From NCBI RefSeq assembly GCF_016026235.1, contig NZ_CP065613.1: a DNA stretch of 64,000 nt; one strand, given 5' to 3'. This document shows positions 1 to 61,983 of the stretch, piece after piece (position 1 is the first letter of the stretch; each line of letters starts with the position of its first letter). This DNA comes from Escherichia coli. Lineage in GTDB: Bacteria > Pseudomonadota > Gammaproteobacteria > Enterobacterales > Enterobacteriaceae. The translations under genes were made by a program, and so were the position numbers. The notes beneath the pieces are model-generated. The model was not told the origin of the DNA. It did no database searches and worked only from the letters and a program-made list of their open reading frames with translations.

Positions 1-2105
1 AACCGGAAATCACCGTGCCGGTAGTCACCGACGCGCAAAAGGGCATTATCATTCATTACGTCCCAGCGCTGCCGCGTAAAGTTCTGCGCGTTGAGTTTCG
101 CATCGATAACAACTCAGCGAAGTTCCGCAGTAAAACGGATGAATTGATTACCTATCTGATTGGTAATCGCAGCCCAGGTACACTTTCTGACTGGCTGCAA
201 AAGCAGGGATTAGTTGAGGGCATTAGCGCCAACTCCGATCCTATCGTCAACGGCAACAGCGGTGTATTAGCGATCTCTGCGTCTTTAACCGATAAAGGTC
301 TGGCGAATCGCGATCAGGTTGTGGCGGCCATTTTTAGCTACCTCAATCTGTTACGTGAAAAAGGGATCGATAAACAATACTTCGATGAACTGGCGAATGT
401 GCTGGATATCGACTTCCGTTATCCGTCAATCACCCGTGATATGGATTACGTCGAATGGCTGGCAGATACCATGATTCGCGTTCCTGTTGAGCATACGCTG
501 GATGCAGTCAATATTGCCGATCGGTACGATGCTAAAGCAGTAAAAGAACGTCTTGCGATGATGACGCCGCAGAATGCGCGTATTTGGTATATCAGCCCGA
601 AAGAGCCGCACAACAAAACGGCTTACTTTGTCGATGCGCCGTATCAGGTCGATAAAATCAGCGAACAAACTTTCGCTGACTGGCAGCAAAAAGCTGCCAA
701 TATTGCGCTCTCCTTACCGGAGCTTAACCCCTATATTCCTGACGATTTCTCGCTGATTAAGTCAGAGAAGAAATATGACCATCCAGAGCTGATTGTTGAT
801 GAGTCGAATCTGCGCGTGGTGTATGCGCCAAGCCGTTATTTTTCCAGCGAACCCAAAGCTGATGTCAGCCTGATTTTGCGTAATCCGAAAGCCATGGACA
901 GCGCCCGCAATCAGGTGATGTTTGCGCTCAATGATTATCTCGCAGGGCTGGCGCTTGATCAGTTAAGCAACCAGGCGTCGGTTGGTGGCATAAGTTTTTC
1001 CACCAACGCTAACAACGGCCTTATGGTTAATGCCAATGGTTACACCCAGCGCCTGCCGCAGCTGTTCCAGGCATTGCTCGAGGGGTACTTTAGCTATACC
1101 GCTACGGAAGATCAGCTTGAGCAGGCGAAGTCCTGGTATAACCAGATGATGGATTCCGCAGAAAAGGGCAAAGCGTTCGAGCAGGCGATTATGCCCGCGC
1201 AGATGCTCTCCCTGGTACCTTACTTCTCGCGAGATGAACGGCGCAAAATTTTGCCCTCCATTACGTTGAAAGAGGTGCTGGCCTATCGCGACGCCTTAAA
1301 ATCAGGGGCTCGACCAGAGTTTATGGTTATCGGCAACATGACCGAGGACCAGGCAACAACGCTGGCACGCGATGTGCAAAAACAGTTGGGCGCTGATGGT
1401 TCAGAGTGGTGTCGAAACAAAGATGTAGTGGTCGATAAAAAACAATCCGTCATCTTTGAAAAAGCCGGTAACAGCACCGACTCCGCACTGGCAGCGGTAT
1501 TTGTACCGACTGGCTACGATGAATACACCAGCTCAGCCTATAGCTCTCTGTTGGGGCAGATCGTACAGCCGTGGTTCTACAATCAGTTGCGTACCGAAGA
1601 ACAATTGGGCTATGCCGTATTTGCGTTTCCAATGAGCGTGGGGCGTCAGTGGGGCATGGGCTTCCTTTTGCAAAGCAATGATAAACAGCCTTCATTCTTG
1701 TGGGAGCGTTACAAGGCGTTTTTCCCAACCGCAGAGGCAAAATTGCGAGCGATGAAGCCAGATGAGTTTGCGCAAATCCAGCAGGCGGTAATTACCCAGA
1801 TGCTGCAGGCACCGCAAACGCTCGGCGAAGAAGCATCGAAGTTAAGTAAAGATTTCGATCGCGGCAATATGCGCTTCGATTCGCGTGATAAAATCGTGGC
1901 CCAGATAAAACTGCTGACGCCGCAAAAACTTGCTGATTTCTTCCATCAGGCGGTGGTCGAGCCGCAAGGCATGGCTATTCTGTCGCAGATTTCCGGCAGC
2001 CAGAACGGGAAAGCCGAATATGTGCATCCTGAAGGCTGGAAAGTGTGGGAGAACGTCAGCGCGTTGCAGCAAACAATGCCCCTGATGAGTGAAAAGAATG
2101 AGTGA
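1..2105 (+). CDS. ptrA: Protease III (pitrilysin), 5'-truncated by window start
   Basis: ORF open to the window start; translation ends ...[22 protein letters not shown] as recalled for PtrA; stop overlaps the recB start by 8 bp. Confidence 0.9.
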   Translation, partial: PEITVPVVTDAQKGIIIHYVPALPRKVLRVEFRIDNNSAKFRSKTDELITYLIGNRSPGTLSDWLQKQGLVEGISANSDPIVNGNSGVLAISASLTDKGLANRDQVVAAIFSYLNLLREKGIDKQYFDELANVLDIDFRYPSITRDMDYVEWLADTMIRVPVEHTLDAVNIADRYDAKAVKERLAMMTPQNARIWYISPKEPHNKTAYFVDAPYQVDKISEQTFADWQQKAANIALSLPELNPYIPDDFSLIKSEKKYDHPELIVDESNLRVVYAPSRYFSSEPKADVSLILRNPKAMDSARNQVMFALNDYLAGLALDQLSNQASVGGISFSTNANNGLMVNANGYTQRLPQLFQALLEGYFSYTATEDQLEQAKSWYNQMMDSAEKGKAFEQAIMPAQMLSLVPYFSRDERRKILPSITLKEVLAYRDALKSGARPEFMVIGNMTEDQATTLARDVQKQLGADGSEWCRNKDVVVDKKQSVIFEKAGNSTDSALAAVFVPTGYDEYTSSAYSSLLGQIVQPWFYNQLRTEEQLGYAVFAFPMSVGRQWGMGFLLQSNDKQPSFLWERYKAFFPTAEAKLRAMKPDEFAQIQQAVITQMLQAPQTLGEEASKLSKDFDRGNMRFDSRDKIVAQIKLLTPQKLADFFHQAVVEPQGMAILSQISGSQNGKAEYVHPEGWKVWENVSALQQTMPLMSEKNE

Positions 2106-5100
2106 TGTCGCCGAGACACTAGATCCTTTGCGCTTGCCCTTACAGGGCGAGCGCCTGATTGAAGCCTCTGCCGGCACAGGCAAAACCTTTACGATTGCGG
2201 CGCTCTATTTGCGCCTGTTACTTGGACTAGGCGGTTCCGCCGCCTTTCCCCGCCCGCTGACCGTTGAAGAACTGCTGGTGGTCACCTTTACCGAGGCTGC
2301 CACGGCAGAATTGCGCGGTCGTATCCGTAGCAATATCCACGAGTTGCGCATCGCCTGTCTGCGTGAAACCACCGACAATCCACTGTACGAACGCCTGCTG
2401 GAAGAGATCGACGATAAAGCGCAAGCCGCGCAGTGGTTGTTGTTAGCCGAACGGCAGATGGATGAAGCGGCAGTCTTTACTATTCACGGCTTTTGCCAGC
2501 GCATGCTCAACCTGAATGCCTTTGAATCCGGCATGCTGTTTGAGCAGCAGCTGATTGAAGATGAGTCTCTGCTACGTTACCAGGCCTGCGCCGATTTCTG
2601 GCGTCGCCACTGCTACCCGCTGCCGCGTGAAATAGCCCAGGTCGTCTTTGAAACCTGGAAAGGGCCGCAGGCGTTGCTGCGCGATATTAATCGTTATCTG
2701 CAAGGCGAAGCGCCGGTTATCAAAGCACCGCCGCCCGATGATGAAACGCTGGCTTCCCGCCACGCGCAAATTGTGGCGCGTATTGCTACGGTAAAACAGC
2801 AGTGGCGCGACGCAGTGGGTGAACTGGATGCGCTGATCGAATCTTCTGGTATTGACCGACGCAAGTTTAACCGTAGCAATCAGGCTAAATGGATCGACAA
2901 GATCAGCGCCTGGGCAGAAGAAGAGACCAACAGTTATCAGTTGCCGGAGTCGCTGGAAAAATTCTCCCAGCGTTTCTTAGAAGATCGCACGAAGGCCGGG
3001 GGGGAAACCCCGCGACATCCACTGTTTGAGGCGATCGATCAACTGCTTGCAGAACCATTGTCGATCCGCGATCTGGTGATCACCCGCGCATTGGCTGAGA
3101 TCCGCGAAACAGTAGCGCGTGAAAAACGCCGCCGTGGCGAATTGGGTTTTGATGACATGTTAAGTCGGCTCGATTCCGCGCTGTGTAGCGAAAGCGGTGA
3201 GGTGTTGGCAGCGGCGATCCGTACGCGATTCCCGGTGGCAATGATCGATGAATTTCAGGATACCGACCCCCAGCAGTACCGAATTTTTCGCCGTATCTGG
3301 CACCATCAGCCGGAAACCGCATTGTTGCTAATTGGCGACCCGAAGCAGGCCATATATGCATTCCGGGGTGCGGATATCTTCACTTATATGAAGGCGCGTA
3401 GCGAAGTTCACGCCCACTACACTTTAGACACCAACTGGCGTTCCGCACCAGGAATGGTGAACAGCGTGAACAAGCTTTTCAGCCAGACTGATGACGCGTT
3501 CATGTTTCGCGAAATACCGTTTATTCCAGTGAAATCAGCCGGGAAAAATCAGGCGTTACGTTTTGTATTTAAAGGTGAAACGCAGCCTGCGATGAAAATG
3601 TGGCTGATGGAAGGCGAAAGCTGCGGCGTTGGCGATTATCAAAGTACCATGGCGCAGGTATGTGCTGCGCAAATCCGCGACTGGCTACAAGCCGGACAGC
3701 GAGGCGAAGCGTTGCTGATGAACGGCGACGACGCGCGTCCGGTGCGTGCTTCGGACATCAGCGTGCTGGTGCGCAGCCGCCAGGAGGCCGCCCAGGTGCG
3801 CGATGCCTTAACGTTGCTGGAAATCCCTTCCGTTTACCTTTCGAACCGCGACAGTGTTTTTGAAACTCTGGAAGCGCAGGAAATGCTTTGGTTGTTGCAG
3901 GCGGTGATGACGCCCGAACGTGAGAACACCCTGCGTAGTGTGCTGGCAACGTCAATGATGGGGCTGAACGCGCTGGATATCGAAACGCTGAATAATGACG
4001 AACATGCGTGGGACGCGGTGGTCGAAGAGTTCGATGGTTATCGGCAAATTTGGCGCAAACGTGGCGTTATGCCGATGCTGCGGGCGCTGATGTCGGCGCG
4101 TAACATTGCAGAAAACTTGCTGGCAACGGCAGGCGGTGAGCGGCGTCTTACCGATATCTTGCATATCAGCGAACTGCTACAAGAAGCCGGAACGCAGCTG
4201 GAAAGTGAACATGCCCTGGTACGCTGGTTATCGCAACATATCCTCGAGCCAGACAGTAATGCCTCCAGCCAACAAATGCGCCTCGAAAGTGATAAACATC
4301 TGGTGCAGATTGTCACGATCCATAAATCGAAAGGGCTGGAATATCCGCTTGTCTGGTTGCCATTTATTACCAATTTCCGCGTCCAGGATCAGGCGTTTTA
4401 TCACGATCGCCACTCGTTTGAGGCTGTTCTGGATCTTAACGCTGCGCCAGAAAGTGTCGATCTCGCGGAGGCCGAACGTCTGGCGGAAGATCTGCGTTTG
4501 CTTTACGTGGCGCTGACGCGTTCGGTTTGGCATTGCAGTCTCGGCGTTGCACCGCTGGTGCGCCGTCGTGGCGATAAAAAAGGTGACACCGACGTCCACC
4601 AAAGTGCGCTCGGGCGTTTGCTGCAAAAAGGGGAACCGCAAGATGCGGCAGGGCTTCGCACCTGTATTGAAGCGTTATGCGATGATGATATTGCCTGGCA
4701 AACGGCACAAACTGGTGATAACCAGCCCTGGCAGGTTAATGATGTTTTAACTGCAGAACTGAATGCGAGGACGCTACAACGATTGCCCGGCGATAACTGG
4801 CGTGTCACCAGCTACTCCGGTTTGCAGCAGCGTGGTCACGGTATCGCTCAGGATCTGATGCCACGGCTGGATGTTGATGCCGCAGGCGTGGTCAGCGTCG
4901 TTGAAGAACCGACGTTAACACCGCATCAATTCCCGCGCGGTGCGTCACCGGGGACATTCTTGCACAGTTTGTTTGAAGACCTCGATTTTACCCAGCCGGT
5001 TGACCCGAACTGGGTGCGGGAAAAACTGGAACTCGGCGGCTTTGAATCGCAGTGGGAACCGGTATTGACCGAGTGGATCACGTCTGTCCTCCAGGCACCT

Positions 5101-5640: not shown

Positions 5641-7466
5641 TGAAATTGCAAAAGCAATTACTGGAAGCTGTGGAGCACAAACAGCTACGCCCGCTGGATG
5701 TGCAATTTGCCCTGACCGTGGCGGGAGATGAACATCCTGCCGTCACCATCGCGGCGGCACTGTTAAGTCATGATGCCGGAGAGGGACACGTTTGTTTGCC
5801 GCTTTCACGACTGGAAAATAACGAGGCGTCGCATCCGCTGTTGGCGACCTGTGTCAGTGAAATCGGTGAGCTACAAAATTGGGAAGAATGCTTGTTGGCT
5901 TCTCAAGCGGTCAGCAGGGGAGATGAACCCACGCCGATGATCCTCTGTGGCGATCGTCTTTATTTGAATCGCATGTGGTGTAACGAGCGGACGGTAGCGC
6001 GCTTCTTCAATGAGGTGAATCATGCCATCGAGGTTGATGAAGCTCTATTGGCGCAAACCCTGGACAAACTTTTTCCAGTAAGCGATGAAATTAACTGGCA
6101 AAAAGTTGCAGCGGCAGTGGCGCTGACGCGGCGGATCTCGGTGATTTCCGGCGGCCCTGGCACCGGTAAAACGACCACCGTAGCGAAGTTGCTGGCAGCG
6201 TTAATTCAAATGGCCGACGGCGAACGCTGCCGTATCCGTCTGGCTGCACCAACGGGTAAAGCTGCCGCGCGCTTAACCGAATCTCTCGGCAAGGCTTTGC
6301 GACAGTTACCGCTGACCGATGAACAAAAGAAACGCATTCCGGAAGATGCCAGCACTTTGCACCGATTGCTGGGCGCGCAGCCGGGTAGCCAGCGTTTACG
6401 TCATCATGCCGGTAACCCGCTGCATCTTGATGTGCTGGTGGTAGATGAAGCGTCAATGATCGATCTGCCTATGATGTCGAGACTGATCGACGCCTTGCCA
6501 GATCATGCGCGAGTGATCTTTCTCGGCGATCGTGATCAACTGGCCTCGGTTGAGGCTGGGGCTGTGCTGGGCGATATCTGCGCTTATGCCAACGCGGGCT
6601 TTACCGCCGAGCGTGCCAGGCAGCTAAGCCGCCTGACGGGGACTCACGTTCCGGCAGGAACTGGCACAGAAGCGGCATCTTTGCGCGACAGTCTCTGCCT
6701 GCTGCAAAAAAGCTATCGTTTCGGCAGCGATTCTGGCATTGGTCAGTTAGCTGCGGCGATCAACCGTGGTGATAAAACGGCAGTGAAAACCGTTTTTCAG
6801 CAGGATTTTACTGATATCGAAAAACGACTTTTACAGAGCGGCGAAGATTATATTGCGATGCTTGAGGAAGCTCTTGCGGGTTACGGACGTTATCTGGATC
6901 TGCTGCAAGCGCGTGCCGAGCCGGATTTAATCATTCAGGCGTTCAATGAGTACCAGCTTTTGTGCGCCCTGCGGGAAGGGCCGTTTGGCGTGGCTGGACT
7001 GAATGAGCGAATTGAGCAGTTTATGCAACAGAAGCGCAAAATTCATCGTCATCCGCACTCTCGTTGGTACGAAGGTCGACCAGTGATGATTGCCCGTAAT
7101 GACAGCGCGCTTGGGTTGTTTAATGGCGATATCGGTATTGCGCTGGATCGCGGGCAGGGGACGCGCGTCTGGTTTGCGATGCCGGACGGCAATATTAAGT
7201 CTGTGCAACCGAGTCGCTTGCCAGAGCACGAAACTACGTGGGCGATGACGGTACATAAATCGCAGGGATCGGAGTTCGACCATGCGGCGTTGATTTTACC
7301 GAGCCAACGCACGCCGGTAGTAACGCGAGAGCTGGTATACACCGCGGTGACCCGCGCGCGTCGCCGTCTGTCGCTGTATGCCGATGAGCGTATATTAAGT
7401 GCGGCAATCGCCACTCGTACTGAGCGGCGCAGTGGTCTGGCGGCGTTGTTTAGTTCGCGGGAATAA
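5640..7466 (+). CDS. recD: RecBCD exonuclease V alpha subunit
   Basis: 608 aa; start overlaps the recB stop (ATGA junction); Walker [10 protein letters not shown]. Confidence 0.95.
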
Positions 7467-10417: not shown

Positions 10418-10494
<77 letters not shown>

Positions 10495-10518
10495 TCACCG
10501 TACTGCTTTTACTTCATC

Positions 10519-10605
<87 letters not shown>

Positions 10606-10638
10606 TCACCGTACTGCTTTACTTCATCAAATTTTAAT

Positions 10639-10715
<77 letters not shown>

Positions 10716-22550: not shown

Positions 22551-23867
22551 TCAGTTAGTTGCCGTTTGAGAACGGAAACGGGCAAAGATAAAGATGACCG
22601 CGAAGCAGAGTGCGGGGATCAGTTCAGCAGTGGGGATGTTGCCCGCCGCGTCACTGACAAAACCCATGACCGGAGTGACAATACCGCCGCCAATGATGGT
22701 CATAACGATGAAGGACGAACCGTATTTGGTGTCCTGGCCGAGATTCTTAATGCCCAGCGAGAAGATTGTTGGGTACTGAATCGACATAAAGGCGCTGCAT
22801 AAAGTCAGGGCTATTAAGCCCACATGACCGCCAGCGAAGGCTGAGATCAGGCACAGTGCCATAGCGATTAATGCGTAGGCGGCCAGGACTTTGTGTGGTG
22901 CGAAGCGACTGATGAGCCAGGTACCGGTGAAACGACCAATAAAGAAGCACACCATGGTTCCGGTTAAATAGTTAGCGGCAAAGCCTGCAGTCATACCTGG
23001 AATTTCTTCTACAGCGTAGCGAATCAAATAGCTCCAGCAGGCCGTTTGTGCGCCAACGTAGCAGAATTGCGCTAATACTGCCCAGCGCCAGTGGCGAATA
23101 CGCGCCAGGCGAGAAAGCGATGCGGAGAACGATCCTTGTTTGGCGTCACTGTGATTATCACTCTGCAATGCCGGGAATTTCGTCAGCATGATCAGCAGGG
23201 CGACCAGTAACACGATAGCCACGATGATCATATAAGGTGTCTGTACCGATAATACCAGGCTGTGTTTATACGCACTCAATTGCTCTGGAGACATTTTATC
23301 GAGAACGTCTTGCGATTGATGTGGCACGTTAGACAAAATAAGACTTTGCCCAAAGACAACCGCGATAATTGCGCCAAACGAGTTAAATGTTTGCGCAAGA
23401 TTTAAGCGGAAGTGACCACTGCTTTCCGGCCCTAATACCGTAACAAAAGGGTTTGCGGCAGTTTCCAGACAACCTAATCCGGCTGCAATAATAAATAGGC
23501 CAACTAAAAATAAGGTGTAGTTCATTATTTCTGCAGCGGGCCAGAATAATGCAGCGCCCAAGGCATATAAAAATAATCCGGTAATAATCCCTGCTTTATA
23601 ACTGAGTTTTTTCATCAATATCCCAGCAGGGATTGGGATAATGAAATAACCAAAGTAAAAGGCCGATTGGATCAGGCCAGCCTGGAAATTTGTCAGCGTA
23701 AAAGCCTGCTGGAATTGAGGTAATAAAATGTCGTTAAGGTTATTGGCTACCGCCCAAAGAAAAAACAGTGAGCACAGCAGCGCGAATGGAATAATGTAAC
23801 TTCTGCTTTGCCCTGCATCTTTATCTACCGCACGGTAACTCTGCGTTTGTATTGATGTGTTTCCCAT
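22551..23867 (-). CDS. fucP: L-fucose:H+ symporter (MFS)
   Basis: 438 aa, multi-helix membrane protein in the conserved fucPIKUR order. Confidence 0.95.
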   Translation of the reverse strand: MGNTSIQTQSYRAVDKDAGQSRSYIIPFALLCSLFFLWAVANNLNDILLPQFQQAFTLTNFQAGLIQSAFYFGYFIIPIPAGILMKKLSYKAGIITGLFLYALGAALFWPAAEIMNYTLFLVGLFIIAAGLGCLETAANPFVTVLGPESSGHFRLNLAQTFNSFGAIIAVVFGQSLILSNVPHQSQDVLDKMSPEQLSAYKHSLVLSVQTPYMIIVAIVLLVALLIMLTKFPALQSDNHSDAKQGSFSASLSRLARIRHWRWAVLAQFCYVGAQTACWSYLIRYAVEEIPGMTAGFAANYLTGTMVCFFIGRFTGTWLISRFAPHKVLAAYALIAMALCLISAFAGGHVGLIALTLCSAFMSIQYPTIFSLGIKNLGQDTKYGSSFIVMTIIGGGIVTPVMGFVSDAAGNIPTAELIPALCFAVIFIFARFRSQTATN

Positions 23868-48418: not shown

Positions 48419-50071
<1,653 letters not shown>

Positions 50072-50143: not shown

Positions 50144-51457
<1,314 letters not shown>

Positions 51458-51475
51458 GACTGACTTTATCTGATT

Positions 51476-51508
51476 TAAAAATGCCAGCCTCCGGGCTGGC
51501 ATTTTTTA
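51476..51508. terminator. Rho-independent terminator (bidirectional) after eno
   Basis: aaaaaTGCCAGCCtccgGGCTGGCAtttttta: 8-bp GC-rich stem flanked by A and T runs. Confidence 0.8.
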
Positions 51509-51516
51509 TGGTTGAG

Positions 51517-52410
51517 TTACCAGCGGCCGGATGCGCCGCCACCTCCAGAAGAACCGCCACCGCCGCTAAATCCGCCGCCACTTGAGCCTCCACCGGAAGA
51601 GGATGAAGAAGAACCTTTTCTTGAAGCTCTTTCTTTACTGAGTTTTTTGTATTTGGCGCGTAGCTTTTTATTGACGATAAGCCAAAAAATAACCAGTGGT
51701 ACGATCGCAAAAGGCGTTAACATACCGCAGGCAACGATTAAATTGGTCCATGGTCCTGGCTCGGCAACATAGAGGAATACCATCCCGTAAATGGCGCCAG
51801 TGAGAGTGATCTAGGGTAAATTCGACGGATCGGTAAAAACAATAAAATATGAAAGTACCGCCAGCAATATAATTACAGCAAGCGATAATGGAATAGGGGG
51901 ATTGATACTGTAATAATCCCCCCTGTCTTCCGGTAATTCACCATTTAACAGAAGCGCGCCGATATTTTCGCTTGCCAGTGTTAATCCACCCATCAGGTCA
52001 TCACTTTTGAAGGCAGGGATCAATATATCCCTGATAATCTTCGCCGCTTGCAGGTCGGTAACCACCCCTTCCAGCCCGTAGCCAACCTCAATACGAACAG
52101 CATGATCCTCCTAGGCAACCAGAAGTAAAATACCATCGTTTCTCTGCTTATCTCCCAGTTTCCAGCTATCAAAAACCCTTGTAGCATATTGTTCAATGGA
52201 ATCGTCTCCGGTGGACGGCACTACTAATACAGCGACCTGCGCCCGTGTTTTATGTGTAATATCCTGCAGTTGCTGTGTCAGTGATTGTTGTTCAGAAGTG
52301 CTTAACGTACCAGTAATATCGGTCACCTGTTGGCGCAGTTCCGGCACAGCAATTTGCTGGGCAAGCCCAGGAAGGCACCACAAAGTGAATAGAATAAAGA
52401 TTAAGCGCAT
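51517..52410 (-). pseudogene. ygcG: TPM-domain protein (YgcG-like paralog 3) with two in-frame amber stops
   Basis: One continuous frame (signal peptide MRLIFILFTLWCLPGLA, TPM domain, TM region, Gly/Ser-rich tail ...GGGGSSGGGGASGRW) is broken by TAG at 52111-52113 and 51811-51813 (plus strand CTA); the first aligns to a conserved Trp in the paralogs (LLLVAWQDH). Confidence 0.7.
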
Positions 52411-52415
52411 TACGA

Positions 52416-53564
52416 TCACCAACGGCCGGATGAACCGCCGCCTCCTGAAGAACCGCCACCACCGCGGAAAGAATTTCTCGACGAAGAGCGAGAATGAGCA
52501 TTACGATTCCCCGTTTTCCTGTTGCTTTTTTCTCCTGACCCCAGCTTAAGATTGCCAGTAAATTTGGCCACAATGATCAGCAGAACGATGCCAGCAATGG
52601 TTATTGGGCCGATAAAATGATCAATTAACCCAATAATTGTTGAGATGAATGCAATATCTTTATTACTGGCGAACACCAGGCACCATCCCACAATAATTAT
52701 CAGCATCACGACAAACAATGAATTTCGTCCTGATTCACGAACCTGCGGAGTCTTCTTTTGTTTTTTCACTTTAGCGTTTTTATTTTTTGGGGGCAGCATC
52801 ATAGGAAATACGCGGCACATATTAAAAACTACCGCGAGACGCTGCTTGCAGGTTGTTGCTAACAATAAACTAAAACAAACGACCGATACCCGCCGAATGA
52901 TGACATCGTCCTGAAAGGAGAAAAACCAGACCATAGGGGTAATCATCGATATCATCCATATGCCACGCCGTGGGCGGCTGGCAAATCGCCAGAGGACAAC
53001 GATGGCAACGATCATCAGCAGTGTCCAGGCAAGACATGGCAGCGAACGTTGCGGATTAGCAAACAGATGATTGGCTAAAGCATCCAAAGGGCTAAGGTTC
53101 GCTTTGATATGGGTAAACTGTGCGATGCTTTCAATTCCGCCCGTTAATCCAGCAAAGAGATTGTTTTTTTCGAATTCTGGCTGCATATGGTAACGAACAA
53201 TTTGCGCAGCTTGTTCCGGCGGCAACATCTCTTCCAGTCCATGTCCAATCTTCATTGACGCCAGCCCTTCCGGCCAAACGACGAGAATTAAGATACCTTC
53301 GCCATATCGCTTCTCTCCAACGGGTTTCCAGTGATATACCCCGTAGCTCTGCGAGGCTGCAAGTTTAATGTTTTTGCCCCCTGTTGTCGGCGTAACCAAC
53401 ACGGCCACCTGGAAGTGGTTTTGCTGCTCGAGAGTCTGTAATTGTTGATTTAAAGCACTTTGTTCTTCTGTCGTTAATGTCCCGGTTAAGTCAGTCACTG
53501 AAGGCAATCGTTCAGCGAATACCTGAAAACCGCATAGCATCAGAAGTAAGAGAAAAATACGCAT
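52416..53564 (-). CDS. TPM-domain membrane protein (paralog 2), Gly/Ser-rich C-terminus
   Basis: 382 aa; signal peptide, TPM-like N-terminal domain, several hydrophobic segments, tail ...RGGGGSSGGGGSSGRW. Confidence 0.75.
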   Translation of the reverse strand: MRIFLLLLMLCGFQVFAERLPSVTDLTGTLTTEEQSALNQQLQTLEQQNHFQVAVLVTPTTGGKNIKLAASQSYGVYHWKPVGEKRYGEGILILVVWPEGLASMKIGHGLEEMLPPEQAAQIVRYHMQPEFEKNNLFAGLTGGIESIAQFTHIKANLSPLDALANHLFANPQRSLPCLAWTLLMIVAIVVLWRFASRPRRGIWMISMITPMVWFFSFQDDVIIRRVSVVCFSLLLATTCKQRLAVVFNMCRVFPMMLPPKNKNAKVKKQKKTPQVRESGRNSLFVVMLIIIVGWCLVFASNKDIAFISTIIGLIDHFIGPITIAGIVLLIIVAKFTGNLKLGSGEKSNRKTGNRNAHSRSSSRNSFRGGGGSSGGGGSSGRW

Positions 53565-53578
53565 ATCAATTCCTTTTG

Positions 53579-54472
53579 TTACCAGCGCCCGGAAGCGCCA
53601 CCGCCACCAGATGAACCGCCACCACCGCTAAAATTGTCATTGTCGAATGAAGAGGATGACGATGATGAATAGTGGGAGGAAGAATTGCTTCTTGTATGGC
53701 GTGATGGCTGGTTGGCATCACGCATCGAATCTCGAACCTTTTTGCCGAAGGGGGTAAAAGCGATGGCAACTGCCAGGAACGGTGTGGCGAAGCAGAGTAA
53801 TGTTGCGAGTACTCCCCAGCTTCCGCTGAAACCTGCTATAGGTAAAACAAAGGCCAGTACAATAGCTGCGAAACAAATTACTCCCAGCGTTTTGATATAT
53901 CCTCTGGCAGAAATAAACGTCAGTACTATCGCCCAGACTAACAAAGCCCACCAACCGCTAAAGGGTAAAGGGTGATCGGTCGGTGTTATCGTTGCTAAAT
54001 TATTCCCCGTCAGACGACTTTCAAGATCGCTGATCCCCTTTTGTAAACCGACAGCAAGATCGCCCTTTTTAAACGCTGGAATAATACTGTTGCGTATAAT
54101 TTGCCCGGACTGCGCATCCGTAATAATACCTTCCAGTCCGTAACCAATTTCAATACGCACGGTATGATCCTGCCAGGCGACTAACAGTAGAACGCCATCA
54201 TCGCGGTCTTTATCACCCGGTTTCCAGCTATCGAATACCCGCGTTGCGTACTGCTCGATGCTTTCATCGCCTGTTGTTTCAACCACTAACACGACCAACT
54301 GTGCGTGGTTTTTTTGCGTCAGGGCTTTGATCTGGTTGGTCAGGGTGTTTACTTCGCTATTTGTTAATGTGCCGGTTAAGTCATTCACATACCTGGGTGA
54401 TTCAGGTACTGGAATTTGTGTGGCAAACACAGATGAACAGAAGAAAGCCATAAGGAAGATAAAATTTCGCAT
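53579..54472 (-). CDS. TPM-domain membrane protein (paralog 1), Gly/Ser-rich C-terminus
   Basis: 297 aa from ATG 54472 (MRNFIFLMAFFCSSVFA signal peptide; GGGGAAG-type SD upstream); tail ...SGGGGSSGGGGASGRW. Confidence 0.75.
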   Translation of the reverse strand: MRNFIFLMAFFCSSVFATQIPVPESPRYVNDLTGTLTNSEVNTLTNQIKALTQKNHAQLVVLVVETTGDESIEQYATRVFDSWKPGDKDRDDGVLLLVAWQDHTVRIEIGYGLEGIITDAQSGQIIRNSIIPAFKKGDLAVGLQKGISDLESRLTGNNLATITPTDHPLPFSGWWALLVWAIVLTFISARGYIKTLGVICFAAIVLAFVLPIAGFSGSWGVLATLLCFATPFLAVAIAFTPFGKKVRDSMRDANQPSRHTRSNSSSHYSSSSSSSFDNDNFSGGGGSSGGGGASGRW

Positions 54473-54485
54473 AGAACTTCCCCGC

Positions 54486-55088
54486 TTAATGAGCACTAGC
54501 ATTCTGGCTAAAATCTATTGTTGGTGCTTTACTCACAGCGGCGACATCATCCGGCAAATAATTTTTCTTTGGTGTGTAATCCATGACCTTTGCGGTTAAC
54601 ACAGCGGGGAATTTGCGGATAGTGACATTATATTGTTCAATGGCTTTAATATATCTTCCTCGCGCAACGGCAATCCGATTTTCACTTCCTTCAAGCTGTA
54701 CCATTAAATTTTGATAGAGTTCCTGAGATTTTAACTCAGGGTAACGCTCACTAATTATCGTTAACTGACCGAGAGTGCGAGTCACCTGCGCTTGAGCCTG
54801 TTGCCAGGCTTGTAATTTTTGTTCATCTCCCGGAGTTTGCTGAAGATCGCTACTGGCGCGATTAGCCTGGCTACGAGCCAATGTTACGGCTTCCAGTACA
54901 TCTCGTTCATGGCTGGAATAACCTTTAATACTGGCGACAAGATTAGGAATAAGATAGGCGCGACGTTGATATTGATTCAATACCTCAGACCAGGAGGCGT
55001 TAACCTGCTCATCATAGGTTTGAATATCGTTATATCCACAGCCTGATAAATTGAAAATAAATATAATTACGATGAATATTCTGAGCAT
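54486..55088 (-). CDS. lemA: LemA-family membrane protein
   Basis: 200 aa; N-terminal hydrophobic segment with lipobox-like LSGCG; LemA-like body; first gene of an operon with the TPM genes. Confidence 0.75.
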   Translation of the reverse strand: MLRIFIVIIFIFNLSGCGYNDIQTYDEQVNASWSEVLNQYQRRAYLIPNLVASIKGYSSHERDVLEAVTLARSQANRASSDLQQTPGDEQKLQAWQQAQAQVTRTLGQLTIISERYPELKSQELYQNLMVQLEGSENRIAVARGRYIKAIEQYNVTIRKFPAVLTAKVMDYTPKKNYLPDDVAAVSKAPTIDFSQNASAH

Positions 55089-55260
55089 GTTTAAATCCCT
55101 TTTAATTAATTCCTTAAAACATAATACTCTGCTTCATTTTATTCTTTATGATCTAATCCACTTTTTGCCATAAACCTGCCTGTAACAGAATGTTAATAAG
55201 ACATGATTGTTGTGGCAGGATCTGCAATAATTAACAATTATCCACTTCACAGAGAATGCT

Positions 55261-55932
55261 ATGCAGTACCCGATTAACGAGATGTTCCAGACCCTGCAAG
55301 GTGAGGGTTACTTTACCGGCGTCCCCGCCATTTTTATTCGTTTACAGGGATGCCCGGTTGGCTGTGCCTGGTGCGACACCAAACACACCTGGGAAAAGCT
55401 TGAGGATCGGGAAGTCTCCCTTTTCAGCATTCTGGCGAAGACCAAAGAGAGTGATAAGTGGGGGGCGGCGAGCAGTGAAGACTTGCTGGCTGTCATTGGT
55501 CGCCAGGGATATACCGCGCGGCATGTGGTGATTACGGGTGGTGAGCCTTGCATTCATGATTTGCTGCCACTGACTGACCTGCTCGAAAAGAACGGTTTTA
55601 GCTGCCAGATCGAAACCAGTGGTACTCATGAAGTACGCTGTACACCGAATACCTGGGTTACCGTATCGCCAAAGCTGAACATGCGCGGCGGCTATGAAGT
55701 GTTGTCACAGGCACTGGAGCGAGCCAACGAAATCAAGCATCCAGTGGGACGCGTACGTGATATTGAAGCACTGGATGAACTTTTGGCGACGCTGACCGAT
55801 GATAAACCGCGAGTCATTGCACTGCAGCCGATTAGCCAAAAGGATGATGCCACACGTTTGTGCATTGAAACCTGCATTGCGCGTAATTGGCGTTTGTCGA
55901 TGCAAACCCATAAATATTTAAATATTGCCTGA
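55261..55932 (+). CDS. queE: 7-carboxy-7-deazaguanine synthase (radical SAM)
   Basis: 223 aa; cysteine motif CPVGCAWCDT; matches recalled QueE/YgcF. Confidence 0.9.
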   Translation: MQYPINEMFQTLQGEGYFTGVPAIFIRLQGCPVGCAWCDTKHTWEKLEDREVSLFSILAKTKESDKWGAASSEDLLAVIGRQGYTARHVVITGGEPCIHDLLPLTDLLEKNGFSCQIETSGTHEVRCTPNTWVTVSPKLNMRGGYEVLSQALERANEIKHPVGRVRDIEALDELLATLTDDKPRVIALQPISQKDDATRLCIETCIARNWRLSMQTHKYLNIA

Positions 55933-56059
55933 TTAAACATTTATAAGCGTTATAAATGGGGGGAACCTGTAAAGACTTCTACTCATTTATATTCTTTGTC
56001 GCCTCTGAAAAAGCTCCATTTTGCCCATCCTGGACTAATCATTATCATTCTCTACAAAT

Positions 56060-56270
56060 TCTGTGGCGTTAATTTTTTGTTGGAGTGAAAATTATTGCGG
56101 TAAAGTTTGGTAGATTTTAGTTTGTATAGAATTATTTTAAATATTTACCTTTTTAATCAATGAGTTAAGTGCTCTTTAACATAATGGATGTGTTGTTTGT
56201 GTGATACTGTAAAGTTGGTAGATTGTGACTGGCTTAAAAAATCATTAATTAATAATAGGTTATGTTTAGA
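56060..56270 (+). promoter_or_regulatory. CRISPR leader (AT-rich) of the type I-E array
   Basis: AT-rich sequence ending ...CTGGCTTAAAAAATCATTAATTAATAATAGGTTATGTTTAGA immediately before repeat 1, as in E. coli I-E leaders. Confidence 0.7.
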
Positions 56271-56523
56271 GAGTTCCCCGCGCCAGCGGGGATAAACCGA
56301 TGACAAAAATTTGCAGGTGCTGGCAGAGGCCGAGTTCCCCGCGCCAGCGGGGATAAACCGTCAGGTGGGATGGTCAGCGCGAAACACACGCCGAGTTCCC
56401 CGCGCCAGCGGGGATAAACCGAGCGCGCAGTTATCAGCCGCGACAACATGAAAGAGTTCCCCGCGCCAGCGGGGATAAACCGCTCATATACGTTACAGCG
56501 TCGGAAATGGAGGCGAGTTCCCC

Positions 56524-57815
56524 TGAGGAATCCCCAGAAAACAAGACAGGCATAGTGAGATGTGATCTAATTGATTGTGCTAACAATTTCAAGGAGATCA
56601 CCACTATGCCTGCACGTTCATTATGCCAAAATTTCCTTAACAACATACTGGCCCCTTTGCATCTTTACCGTCAAAAATCACTGATTGACGCAACTAATGC
56701 TGTAATAAATGGCGCTTCCCTCACACTTACCAGTATCGGGCGTCATTTAACCGGTACGGCATCAGTTAAAAACAAAATAAAGCGGGTGGATCGACTGTTG
56801 GGGAATCGACATTTGCAAAATGAGGTTTCCACCATTTTTCAGCGAATTACCCAAAAGATTACGCGGGGAATGTCTCGTGTTGTGATACTCATTGACTGGA
56901 GTGCTTATCATGCCTCTCGTTTTCAGCTTTTGCGGGCAAGCCTGGCATGTGACGGGCGTTCTTTACCGTTGATGAGTTGTGTCGTTCCATCATCACAGAC
57001 AGCGAATGCAGATGTACATGAGCGTTTTCTGGAATCGCTTGCTGAGTGCTTTTCCCCCGGGACTGATGTCATTGTTATTACAGATGCCGGTTTTCAGGGG
57101 CGATGGTTCCAACAGCTCCGCTCCCGTGGCTGGACCTATATTTGCCGGGTACTGGGCAATCATTATTACAATGTTGGTAATGGCTGGGAAAAGGTGTCGG
57201 ACTCAGGCACAAAAGCATCAACGACAGCAATTTATTTAGGTGAAGGCCTGCTGGGTCGAGATAAAAATGCACAACATGAAGGGCATTTTTATCTTTATAA
57301 AAGTAAGCCTAAAGGTCGTAGATTTAAACGCTCGAAGGAAAGAGCAACCAGACCATCGGTGACGGCTAAAGCTCGTACTGCCGGGAAATCACCATGGTTT
57401 ATTTTCACAAACAGTACTGAGTTCTCGCCAAAACAGGTAATGAAATTATACAGCCGTAGAATGCAAATTGAGCAAAATTTCAGGGATGAAAAAAATCCTC
57501 GCTGGGGATTTGGACTACGGTTTGGTGCCAGTCATTCATCCGGGCGGGTCACGGTATTGAGTCTGATCGCAACATTAGCCAGTATCATTATGTGGTTAAG
57601 CGGTTTCAGCCTGGAAAACAAAGGGATACATCATAAATATCAGGCAAATACAGTGAAGCACAGGCGAGTCATCTCGTTATTAAAACTGGCGGAGAATGTG
57701 ATTCGACATTCTCCACTCATACTAAACACACTGTCACTTGACGCAGGGCTGAAAGTTCTACAGCAACGGTATACCAATATGATAATGGTTTACTAAATTT
57801 TCTGGGGATCCCTCA
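56524..57815 (+). mobile_element. IS4-family (IS10-like) insertion sequence, copy 1, inside a CRISPR repeat
   Basis: ~1.29 kb; imperfect terminal inverted repeats CTGAGG(A/G)ATCCCCAGAAAA; flanked by a direct duplication of 10-12 bp of repeat sequence (GCGAGTTCCCC); one transposase ORF. Confidence 0.85.
56606..57796 (+). CDS. IS4-family DDE transposase (IS10-like)
   Basis: 396 aa from ATG 56606 (AAGGAG SD); shares recalled IS10 transposase motifs (KRVDRLLGNRHL, LIDWS, ITDAGF, YSRRMQIEQNFRD, YQANTV); the track ORF start at 56507 is read-through from spacer 4. Confidence 0.8.
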   Translation: MPARSLCQNFLNNILAPLHLYRQKSLIDATNAVINGASLTLTSIGRHLTGTASVKNKIKRVDRLLGNRHLQNEVSTIFQRITQKITRGMSRVVILIDWSAYHASRFQLLRASLACDGRSLPLMSCVVPSSQTANADVHERFLESLAECFSPGTDVIVITDAGFQGRWFQQLRSRGWTYICRVLGNHYYNVGNGWEKVSDSGTKASTTAIYLGEGLLGRDKNAQHEGHFYLYKSKPKGRRFKRSKERATRPSVTAKARTAGKSPWFIFTNSTEFSPKQVMKLYSRRMQIEQNFRDEKNPRWGFGLRFGASHSSGRVTVLSLIATLASIIMWLSGFSLENKGIHHKYQANTVKHRRVISLLKLAENVIRHSPLILNTLSLDAGLKVLQQRYTNMIMVY

Positions 57816-58316
57816 GGCGAGTTCCCCGCGCCAGCGGGGATAAACCACCATATAACCCGTTATCTCTTTCTCAAGTTTTTATATTAGCAGTACTTGTAAT
57901 AAGCAACATATCCACGTAACACCTCATGTTCAAAATAGTTCTCCATGCCAGAGAAGTTCACAATTATCGATACAAAAAATTAAGTTTAATCAAAGTATTA
58001 TTTGTATGATTCTTAAATCATTAAGAAATTTTAATATATTATTTTTTTAATATTAATTAATGCCTGTTAATTTTTGCTTAAGTATAACAGTGTATTTTTT
58101 AAGCTTGTTATTCATTGATTAAGTAATAAATCTGGAAGTTTGTCTTTGTTTTGAGGCTAATGAGTGGTTTTACATAACCGCCTCTATACGCTGTTGATGA
58201 ATAGTTCTTATGAATAAAGATATTCAGTTCATACTTTAAGTGAAAATTGATAAAGTGCGATTCGTATTGTCTTTTATTCTAAAGACATCGAGTGTAGTTA
58301 ATATTCCTTGTAAAAA

Positions 58317-59928: not shown

Positions 59929-61983
59929 TTACTTGCTGCTAGCTATTGCGGGGGCGCTATCAGCAGTACGAATTTTTTGGAACAGCAAAAAGGTAAAGAC
60001 GATCACCATGCCGAGCGCCGCCATGCCCATCAGCCACATATTGCGGTAGGCTTCTGCTGCGGGCAGGGTGTCTTGCCAGTGGCCGATAATTGGGTAAACG
60101 AAGACATCCGGCAGGAATCCTATCACCGAACAAATACCTACCGTGGTGCCCATAATGTAAGACGGTGTTCTCGCTTCGCCGGGGCAGGCCCAGTACAGTC
60201 CACGTGAGGCGTAGCAGGTGAATCCCAGCAGTAAAATCAGGCCAATCCCCATTGCGACCGATTGCGGGTTAGAGTTGGTAACAAGCAGGGCAGTCAGTGC
60301 CAGCAGGCCGATGATGGAAAGGATTTGGATCACGCGGGTAGGGGATTTCACTTTGCTGTAGGTGGTGATTATGCCGCCAAGTGGGCCGCACAGCGCGCGG
60401 AATATTTTGTTGATCACAATCCCCATGTAGCTCGCCGCCACCAGCGACATGCCGTACATTTCGGTCAGATAGTTGGTGGAGGTAATGACTCCAACTTATT
60501 GATAGTGTTTTATGTTCAGATAATGCCCGATGACTTTGTCATGCAGCTCCACCGATTTTGAGAACGACAGCGACTTCCGTCCCAGCCGTGCCAGGTGCTG
60601 CCTCAGATTCAGGTTATGCCGCTCAATTCGCTGCGTATATCGCTTGCTGATTACGTGCAGCTTTCCCTTCAGGCGGGATTCATACAGCGGCCAGCCATCC
60701 GTCATCCATATCACCACGTCAAAGGGTGACAGCAGGCTCATAAGACGCCCCAGCGTCGCCATAGTGCGTTCACCGAATACGTGCGCAACAACCGTCTTCC
60801 GGAGACTGTCATACGCGTAAAACAGCCAGCGCTGGCGCGATTTAGCCCCGACATAGCCCCACTGTTCGTCCATTTCCGCGCAGACGATGACGTCACTGCC
60901 CGGCTGTATGCGCGAGGTTACCGACTGCGGCCTGAGTTTTTTAAGTGACGTAAAATCGTGTTGAGGCCAACGCCCATAATGCGGGCAGTTGCCCGGCATC
61001 CAACGCCATTCATGGCCATATCAATGATTTTCTGGTGCGTACCGGGTTGAGAAGCGGTGTAAGTGAACTGCAGTTGCCATGTTTTACGGCAGTGAGAGCA
61101 GAGATAGCGCTGATGTCCGGCGGTGCTTTTGCCGTTACGCACCACCCCGTCAGTAGCTGAACAGGAGGGACAGCTGATAGAAACAGAAGCCACTGGAGCA
61201 CCTCAAAAACACCATCATACACTAAATCAGTAAGTTGGCAGCATCACCGTTGGTGGAGTAACTCAGAATGGCGTAGATGGTGAAGACACCAAAAATCACC
61301 ATGCTGCAATACCAGGTGGTGCTGATGCGCAAAACGGCCAGGATGTCGCTAAGCTGGAATGATTGTTTTTCTTCGTTATTGGCACTGCGCAGGTTGTTGT
61401 TATCGCTAACAAAAAACCAGCACAGAATCCCCAACAAGATGTAAACCACACTATAGATGATAATGACCGTTTTCAGGCTGGTGCTGTCATCCGGTGCAAA
61501 GCGAGAAAAAACCCACATGGTAAACACTGCCAGCGACATTACACCGACGCCGCGCAGCCCTTCCATCCAGCCCATAATTTTCCCTTGCTCGCTATGATCG
61601 CCAAGCAACGAGGCGGCTTTAATCGACACCGACCACAGCATTAAAATCGTCGTTATCGCAAATGCGACCTGAATACAGAGCATTACCCACAGCGGTGGAT
61701 ACGTTGCCATTAACAGACCCAGTAATCCGGTAATGATCATCGCGGAAGTAATCATTTTGCGATGTGAGAATTTATCGGCAATAACGCCGCTGGGGGCATA
61801 AAGAATAATAGCTGCAATACCAAAGGTACTCATTATTAAACCTATCTCGGTATTGCTGAATCCCATAAATTTCGCCATGGGAATTTGATAAATATAACGT
61901 AAATAAGCCAGGTCGAAACTAACGCCGCCGCTAAAACTAATTATCGCGAGGGTTATCCAACGGCGATATGAGTTGTGTTGCAT
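59929..61983 (-). pseudogene. yqcE: MFS transporter YqcE-like, disrupted by IS1
   Basis: N-terminal part 61249-61983 and C-terminal part 59929-60480 are in the same reading frame across a 768-bp IS1 plus 9-bp duplication; together ~425 aa. Confidence 0.8.
60481..61248 (-). mobile_element. IS1: IS1 insertion sequence (insA 60918-61193, insB 60496-60999)
   Basis: 768 bp; ends GGTAATGACTCCAACTTATTGAT (plus strand) and reverse complement of GGTGATGCTGCCAACTTACTGAT; InsA ([23 protein letters not shown]...) and InsB ORFs; 9-bp target duplication GTTGGTGGA at 60472-60480 and 61249-61257. Confidence 0.95.

Follow-up and report, generated by a model that had tools for sequence, protein, structure and literature searches.

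The window, a 64,000-nt stretch of an Escherichia coli genome, contains pyrG and eno and, converging on eno from the opposite strand, a gene cluster in the order lemA-TPM-TPM-TPM (Table 1). The last gene of this cluster is the eno-proximal TPM-domain gene, whose start is overlapped by 4 nt by the stop of the middle TPM paralog. Translation of the minus strand from 52422 to 51517 gave a single 302-codon frame with exactly two internal stops, in agreement with the first-pass annotation of this DNA, made by a model from the letters alone, which had described one continuous frame interrupted by two TAG codons. Three mechanical ORFs (52111..52422, 51811..52065 and 51517..51783) all belong to this one frame, which reads ...LLLVA*EDHAVRIEVGYGLEG... 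around amber 1 and ...DPSNLP*ITLTG... around amber 2. The restored protein matched the Pfam TPM domain (PF04536) over residues 32-155 with E=3.8e-38, placing it in the TPM/YgcG family. An intact ortholog, WP_001362297.1 (TPM domain-containing, 300 aa), is annotated in the genome FDAARGOS_943, and the gene is also intact in the isolate Tig207. The conserved motif LLLVAWQDH is present in the LemA-proximal paralog. Residues W103 and W203 are named throughout by RefSeq protein numbering.

Table 1. Positions of the genes, amber codons and Dcm-site transitions in the window.
Feature	Coordinates	Strand	Basis or remark
pyrG	48434-50071		
eno	50159-51457		
Eno-proximal TPM-domain gene, now a pseudogene	51517..52419	-	Ortholog of WP_001362297.1 (300 aa)
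Middle TPM paralog, 382 aa, intact	52416..53564	-	ORF list and annotation of relatives
LemA-proximal TPM paralog, 297 aa by the usual annotation	53579..54472	-	Mechanical ORF reaches 54502
lemA, first gene of the cluster	54486..55088	-	PF04011
Amber 1, Trp103 TGG to TAG	52111..52113	-	T at 52112; C in FDAARGOS_943 and Tig207
Amber 2, Trp203 TGG to TAG	51811..51813	-	T at 51812; C in FDAARGOS_943 and Tig207
Former Dcm site CCAGG, now CTAGG	52111..52115	+	C to T at the inner C, 52112
Former Dcm site CCAGG, now CTAGG	51811..51815	+	C to T at the inner C, 51812
Third lineage-specific Dcm transition, CCAGG to CTAGG	33762	+	Inside csrB

Dcm is a methyltransferase that recognizes CCWGG and methylates the inner cytosine, and 5-methylcytosine deaminates spontaneously to thymine. 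When the window was compared over 1021 nt with FDAARGOS_943, the closest complete genome, the two amber positions were the sole differences, and both the sister genome and the outgroup Tig207 carry CCAGG at each site, showing that the window alleles are derived. The methylated C of these sites lies on the template strand of the CC-TGG codons, and its replacement by T therefore changes TGG to TAG on the coding strand. The earlier reading of amber 1, as a TGG to TAG change that replaces a Trp conserved in the paralogs, was thus confirmed by the C found in FDAARGOS_943. For amber 2, which had been left open as a former TGG or CAG, the ancestral codon proved to be TGG and the CAG option fell away. 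The intact gene contains four Dcm sites and hence eight methylated positions; a stop can arise at two of these only (W103 and W203), and both have changed.

The plus strand reads ctag at 52111-52114 and at 51811-51814, and on the coding strand a C comes before each TAG codon, which places both within a CTAG, as had been read before directly from the sequence. This context had been listed as a curiosity. It is instead the direct product of CCAGG to CTAGG change at Dcm sites: since a C to T transition at the inner C of CCAGG yields CTAGG, the CTAG context is the footprint of such a mechanism and not a coincidence. The general scarcity of CTAG that had been mentioned with it was also seen, as the window contains 15 copies against ~250 expected from its base composition, which is a strong depletion. 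Three of the 15 are fresh products of Dcm-site transitions, and the 209 other CCWGG sites in the window were unchanged. With regard to the protein, amber 1 truncates it within the TPM domain and removes the Gly-rich tail and every hydrophobic segment of the C-terminal part, and W103* should, therefore, be sufficient by itself to inactivate it. Amber 2 falls in the C-terminal hydrophobic part, which is presumably membrane-spanning.

The occurrence of these alleles was examined in public genomes. When 5,426 complete E. coli genomes were searched by megablast, 782 proved to have the gene at full length. Using 61-base probes centred on each site in complete E. coli genomes that carry the gene, we found the T allele of amber 1 in 0 of 733 genomes and that of amber 2 in 0 of 771. 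The truncated 102-aa product was present in public protein collections, and the locus was 100% identical to the window, with both TAG codons, in contig JTCO01000003.1 and in the Logan assembly of SRR17652784; 13 more similar places were reported besides these two. JTCO01 is an Illumina MiSeq draft of the enteroinvasive E. coli (EIEC) O143:H26 strain 4608-58, phylogroup E (PMC4319576). Independent short-read assemblies thus show TAG at both positions, and their identity to the window excludes a base-calling artefact at methylated motifs. Matching EIEC O143:H26 4608-58, the window lineage is an O143:H26-like EIEC of phylogroup E. Shigella dysenteriae Sd197, in which the 88-aa C-terminal ORF is annotated, was considered as the identity of the window and rejected; its gene is interrupted by IS1 and its allele is different, and the shared 88-aa ORF is, therefore, incidental.

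The first 55 kb of the window is ~99.94% identical to FDAARGOS_943, and SNPs in 55,138 bp were polarized with Tig207 as the outgroup. The window branch carries 20 derived SNPs, 14 of which are G:C to A:T transitions. Three of the 20 fall on the 390 Dcm target positions present in the 55,138 bp (binomial P = 3.7e-4), and the rate at Dcm positions was ~19-fold that at other G:C to A:T sites, an estimate built on only 3 Dcm SNPs among 20. This enrichment is statistically compatible with the 8-fold natural excess attributed to Cherry 2018, and two hits within one 900-bp gene somewhat exceed what the average Dcm rate predicts. The sister branch has one further Dcm-site transition, at 23682, and no synonymous Dcm-site changes were seen elsewhere in the 55 kb. 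Of the coding changes on the window branch, 8 are missense, 2 are nonsense and 5 are synonymous (10:5 for non-synonymous to synonymous), which points to purifying selection that is weak or to a very recent origin. The missense changes affect, among others, recB (2), gudD (2), ptrA, gcvA, fucR and truC (W to R).

Several other differences were observed along the window. The third Dcm-site transition changes AAGGCCAGGGA to AAGGCTAGGGA in csrB (33587-33946, plus strand; Rfam RF00018, 378 bits), and it is known from the window alone. In gudX (~37355-38644, plus strand), a 1-bp deletion that neither the sister genome nor the outgroup has (CCC to CC at 38535-38537) shifts the frame of the last ~50 codons of the normal reading frame. 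The exact 429-aa frameshifted product was found on 21 contigs, including EIEC 4608-58, and is thus a real marker of the lineage. Together with the excess of missense and nonsense changes, this frameshift fits an EIEC lineage in early gene decay. There are three tandem tRNA-Met(CAT) genes at 10418-10715, compared with two in FDAARGOS_943, and the middle copy has a G to A change at 10590. A 769-bp segment (60480-61248) is 100% identical to the queE-adjacent IS1 of FDAARGOS_943 and occupies a different location in the window. In the part of the window that includes 55125-57820, the CRISPR/IS region downstream of queE differs from that of FDAARGOS_943 by rearrangement and partial inversion. FDAARGOS_943 itself has an intact eno-proximal gene, a LemA-proximal TPM paralog annotated as truncated (6342-7013 of the extracted locus L001) and an IS1 between lemA and queE. 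The window and FDAARGOS_943 are thus damaged in different genes of the cluster, such that separate members are decaying in sister lineages.

Each amber was also found on its own in other E. coli. W103* alone is present on at least five other haplotypes (at least six contexts including the window) and W203* alone on at least four others (at least five contexts including the window); an allele of 94% identity (L019) has W203* as well. Alternative ambers were carried by the members of two locus pairs with identical sequence across 4.3 kb (L007 versus L023 and L025, and L006 versus L024). All of the recurrent W103* and W203* events are TAG and none is TGA, though either codon would yield the same truncated protein. 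At non-Dcm Trp codons, the only stop-verified nonsense alleles were W86*, present on two haplotypes, and W246*, present on one. Expressed per possible position, this amounts to ~5.5 events at the two Dcm positions versus ~0.5 at the non-Dcm Trp positions, in a survey ascertained by searching for exactly the W103* and W203* truncated products and in which the numbers are small; the ratio matches the approximately ten-fold factor of the lacI hotspots. Contig counts were rejected as a measure of events. Many apparent W86*, W246* and W224* truncations are genes cut by contig ends, and, therefore, only loci with a verified stop were counted. Short-tract recombination could have shifted an amber between haplotypes without a trace, given how little the 5' third of the gene varies.

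Exact-match look-ups recovered the two Dcm nonsense products on 31 and 17 contigs, versus 0, 0 and 1 contigs for the Dcm missense products. We considered this excess as a sign of selection for loss of the gene and rejected it, as it was gone once haplotype backgrounds were considered: most single-amber haplotypes lie on I244V, 304-aa or 293-aa backgrounds, to which the exact-match missense look-ups are blind. A separate observation concerns strain 99-3311 (L047, 97.7%-identity allele group), which has Arg103 through a TGG to AGG change in an otherwise intact gene. There, CCTGG has become CCAGG, and the Dcm site is kept though the "conserved" Trp is gone.

The gene had been called ygcG-like, and alignment with ygcG from K-12 and other strains had been suggested. 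We found that it is not an ortholog of K-12 ygcG. K-12 YgcG is identical to the restored protein at 125 of 300 aligned residues (~42%), and only ~139 nt of the query, covering the 3' end of the gene and the spacer to eno, match K-12-type genomes at the DNA level; the slot is the same, and the DNA similarity is confined to the 3' tail and the flanks. As K-12 carries a different, ~42%-identical cassette, an alignment to its ygcG would mislead. The eno-queE interval (51460-55200, compared with K-12 DH1) behaves as a variable cassette, with lemA and three TPM genes in ~14% of complete genomes, and with yqcG and a single ygcG in the K-12-type version, which shares DNA with the window cassette only in the Gly-rich 3' tail and the flanks. 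K-12 YgcG (b2778) resembles the window protein in its position between eno and queE, and also in its signal peptide, TPM domain, hydrophobic segments and Gly-rich ...GGGGSSGGGGASGRW tail. It is different in its surroundings, since K-12 has one TPM gene and yqcG where the window has lemA and three TPM genes. The locus should, therefore, be annotated as a pseudogene of the WP_001362297.1 family, and not as two or three small ORFs or as K-12 ygcG.

Truncations were also found in the homologs. The homologous Trp of K-12-type ygcG, W100 (GCC TGG), lies on a Dcm site, and the natural W100* loci comprise 7 TAG and 1 TGA. In the LemA-proximal paralog, the Trp codon is likewise placed as GCC-TGG, and 6 contigs encode the W100* product of that paralog. 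In K-12-type ygcG, truncation alleles exist at essentially every codon tested, with 152 contigs for W182* and 40 for Q136* at non-Dcm codons and 80 for W100* and 35 for Q108* at Dcm codons. These counts were considered as a replication of the Dcm effect and rejected, as clonal expansion dominates them (the 152 W182* contigs come from 3 places). Contig counts are as high at non-Dcm codons, and thus raw counts do not single out Dcm sites; the 7:1 ratio of TAG to TGA at W100 is the sole result from K-12-type ygcG that is consistent with a Dcm effect. The TPM/YgcG family is broadly tolerant of loss.

Among intact alleles from four divergent backgrounds, dN/dS was 0.11-0.25, indicating that constraint on the gene is the norm. 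At the same time, E. coli can clearly do without it. The gene is missing from ~86% of complete E. coli genomes, S. dysenteriae Sd197 has an IS1 inside it, other nonsense or disrupted alleles exist, and some of the 94%-identity alleles are frameshifted. The first-pass annotation had concluded from the two nonsense changes that selection on the gene is relaxed. Tolerance of its loss is plausible in view of the absences, the IS1 insertion and the nonsense alleles; as an inference, relaxed selection is too general for a gene with these dN/dS values, and two hotspots, of which the second was neutral when hit, explain the double hit better.

Our results indicate that the eno-proximal TPM gene is very probably a lineage-specific and recently formed pseudogene made by two 5-methylcytosine deamination hotspots at Dcm sites. 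Dcm would methylate the inner C of CCWGG and the 5-methylcytosine would deaminate to T; a T:G mismatch that escaped very-short-patch repair by Vsr would then become a fixed C to T change. Deamination of the C on the template strand of the two Trp codons would thus yield W103* and W203*. One of the hotspot hits would have occurred first and been tolerated, and, since this first amber had already killed the gene, whichever amber came second would have been effectively neutral. We infer that Dcm methylates both amber sites in the window strain, that the chemical event was deamination rather than polymerase error, and that the ambers are not read through to a full-length product.

Other explanations of the double amber were weighed against this one. 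A technical origin of the T alleles, whether from sequencing or base calling at methylated CCWGG or from another error of assembly, has next to no probability. Long-read sequencing is known to err systematically at methylation motifs, both differences lie exactly on such motifs, and neither allele occurs in any complete RefSeq genome; against an artefact, the MiSeq assembly of EIEC 4608-58, the independent Logan assembly and the 13 further places agree with the window, the 209 other CCWGG sites are unchanged, and the gudX frameshift that marks the same lineage is present in 21 contigs. We give equally little credence to decoding of the TAG codons by a suppressor tRNA or by programmed read-through, which would leave the gene functional. 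The frame is open downstream of each stop, yet this is expected of a young pseudogene. TAG is a normal stop codon in E. coli, the only tRNAs in the window are the three tRNA-Met genes, the stops are not conserved (0/733 and 0/771 complete genomes, with TGG in the sister strain), and the ~20 codons downstream are not needed for any known recoding signal.

Random nonsense mutation under relaxed selection, with the CTAG/Dcm context a coincidence, is decidedly unlikely. It would draw on the tolerance of the gene family to loss (W86*, W246*, the Sd197 IS1 and the frameshifted 94%-identity alleles), on the many truncation alleles of K-12-type ygcG, and on the 10 non-synonymous or nonsense changes against 5 synonymous ones in this lineage, plus its gudX frameshift. 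A coincidence would, however, require that both hits fell on the 2 Dcm positions among ~20 positions at which a transition creates a stop, for which the chance is <1% when the set is taken as 7 Trp codons x 2 plus 6 CAG codons, with other Gln and Arg codons left out. The exclusive use of TAG over TGA in the recurrent events and the enrichment of Dcm positions among the SNPs of the lineage also argue against it. Even less probable is positive selection for loss of the TPM gene, pathoadaptive or niche-adaptive, in which Dcm sites would be the easiest route to a knockout and a harmful W203* fragment was possibly silenced later by W103*. Such selection could account for the independent inactivation of the gene across 11 or more haplotype contexts and through further routes; the Sd197 gene carries an IS1, a sister paralog is truncated in FDAARGOS_943, and parts of the cluster are gone from both invasive lineages. 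However, the amber alleles are rare, lie at the tips of the tree and are absent from ~750 complete genomes (0/~750); long-term dN/dS is low; nonsense events (2, 1) are not clearly commoner than Dcm missense events (0, 0, 1) on the same background; and a hotspot factor of ~10 explains the counts without selection. A broader form of this idea, which starts from the finding that the conserved Trp codon, GCC-TGG, lies on a Dcm site in three homologs (the pseudogene, the LemA-proximal paralog and K-12 ygcG), is unlikely as well; TPM/YgcG genes would be intrinsically fragile, and their repeated inactivation by ambers, the double hit included, and by the S. dysenteriae IS1 would not be neutral but the outcome of selection, with invasive or host-restricted lineages converging on the loss of an envelope protein. 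More speculatively, a Vsr-stimulated reversion of CTAGG to CCAGG might make such an amber switch reversible.

The Dcm-site deamination that we favor can be compared with known systems. In the TPM gene, the methylated C was on the template strand and TGG became TAG, unlike at the lacI hotspots, where CAG reportedly became TAG. The lacI hotspots also come from laboratory mutant collections, whereas the two TPM ambers arose naturally, became fixed in a clinical lineage and share one gene. Otherwise the two cases are alike, as both involve G:C to A:T transitions at the second C of CCAGG that produce ambers in approximately ten-fold excess (Coulondre, Miller, Farabaugh and Gilbert 1978); the ~10-fold over-representation of lacI amber hotspots at this C is given as reported for Coulondre et al. 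1978 in PMC12606429. In natural E. coli and Salmonella, C to T change at the inner C of CCWGG was elevated 8-fold according to Cherry 2018 (J Bacteriol), as related in PMC9520237. As described there, that study provides a genome-wide estimate of rate, and the TPM pseudogene is a single gene with a functional consequence. Dcm is generally present in E. coli (Militello et al. 2012, as cited in PMC4924334); the dcm-vsr genes of this strain would lie beyond the window.

Vsr repairs T:G mismatches in CTWGG/CCWGG contexts, and its level depends on growth phase (PMC2715241). Very-short-patch repair has been proposed to be what makes CTAG scarce in E. coli (Bhagwat and McClelland 1992, as cited in PMC3035439), and the 15 CTAG and 209 CCWGG sites of the window match the effect proposed in this work and that of Lieb and Bhagwat. 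In the window lineage, repair would have failed three times. As in the gene decay of Shigella and EIEC, the window has IS elements nearby, a frameshifted gudX and many non-synonymous changes relative to synonymous ones; EIEC has been described as less decayed than Shigella (PMC4319576). We found no evidence that loss of the TPM gene is pathoadaptive within EIEC decay.

Amber mutation at Dcm hotspots is a mechanism that is already known, and a specialist would not be surprised by it; the double amber opens no new biological question and is a tidy, illustrative case. Possible lineage markers are the csrB change and, confirmed in O143:H26-like EIEC assemblies, the two ambers and the frameshift in gudX. 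In scans of enterobacterial genomes, an in-frame TAG in a CTAGG/CCTAG context should be read first as a Dcm-site transition. The TPM gene is thus a clean replication in nature of a classic finding from the laboratory, one in which the methylated cytosines that are capable of giving a stop are exactly those that changed, and in which the same changes recur in unrelated E. coli.
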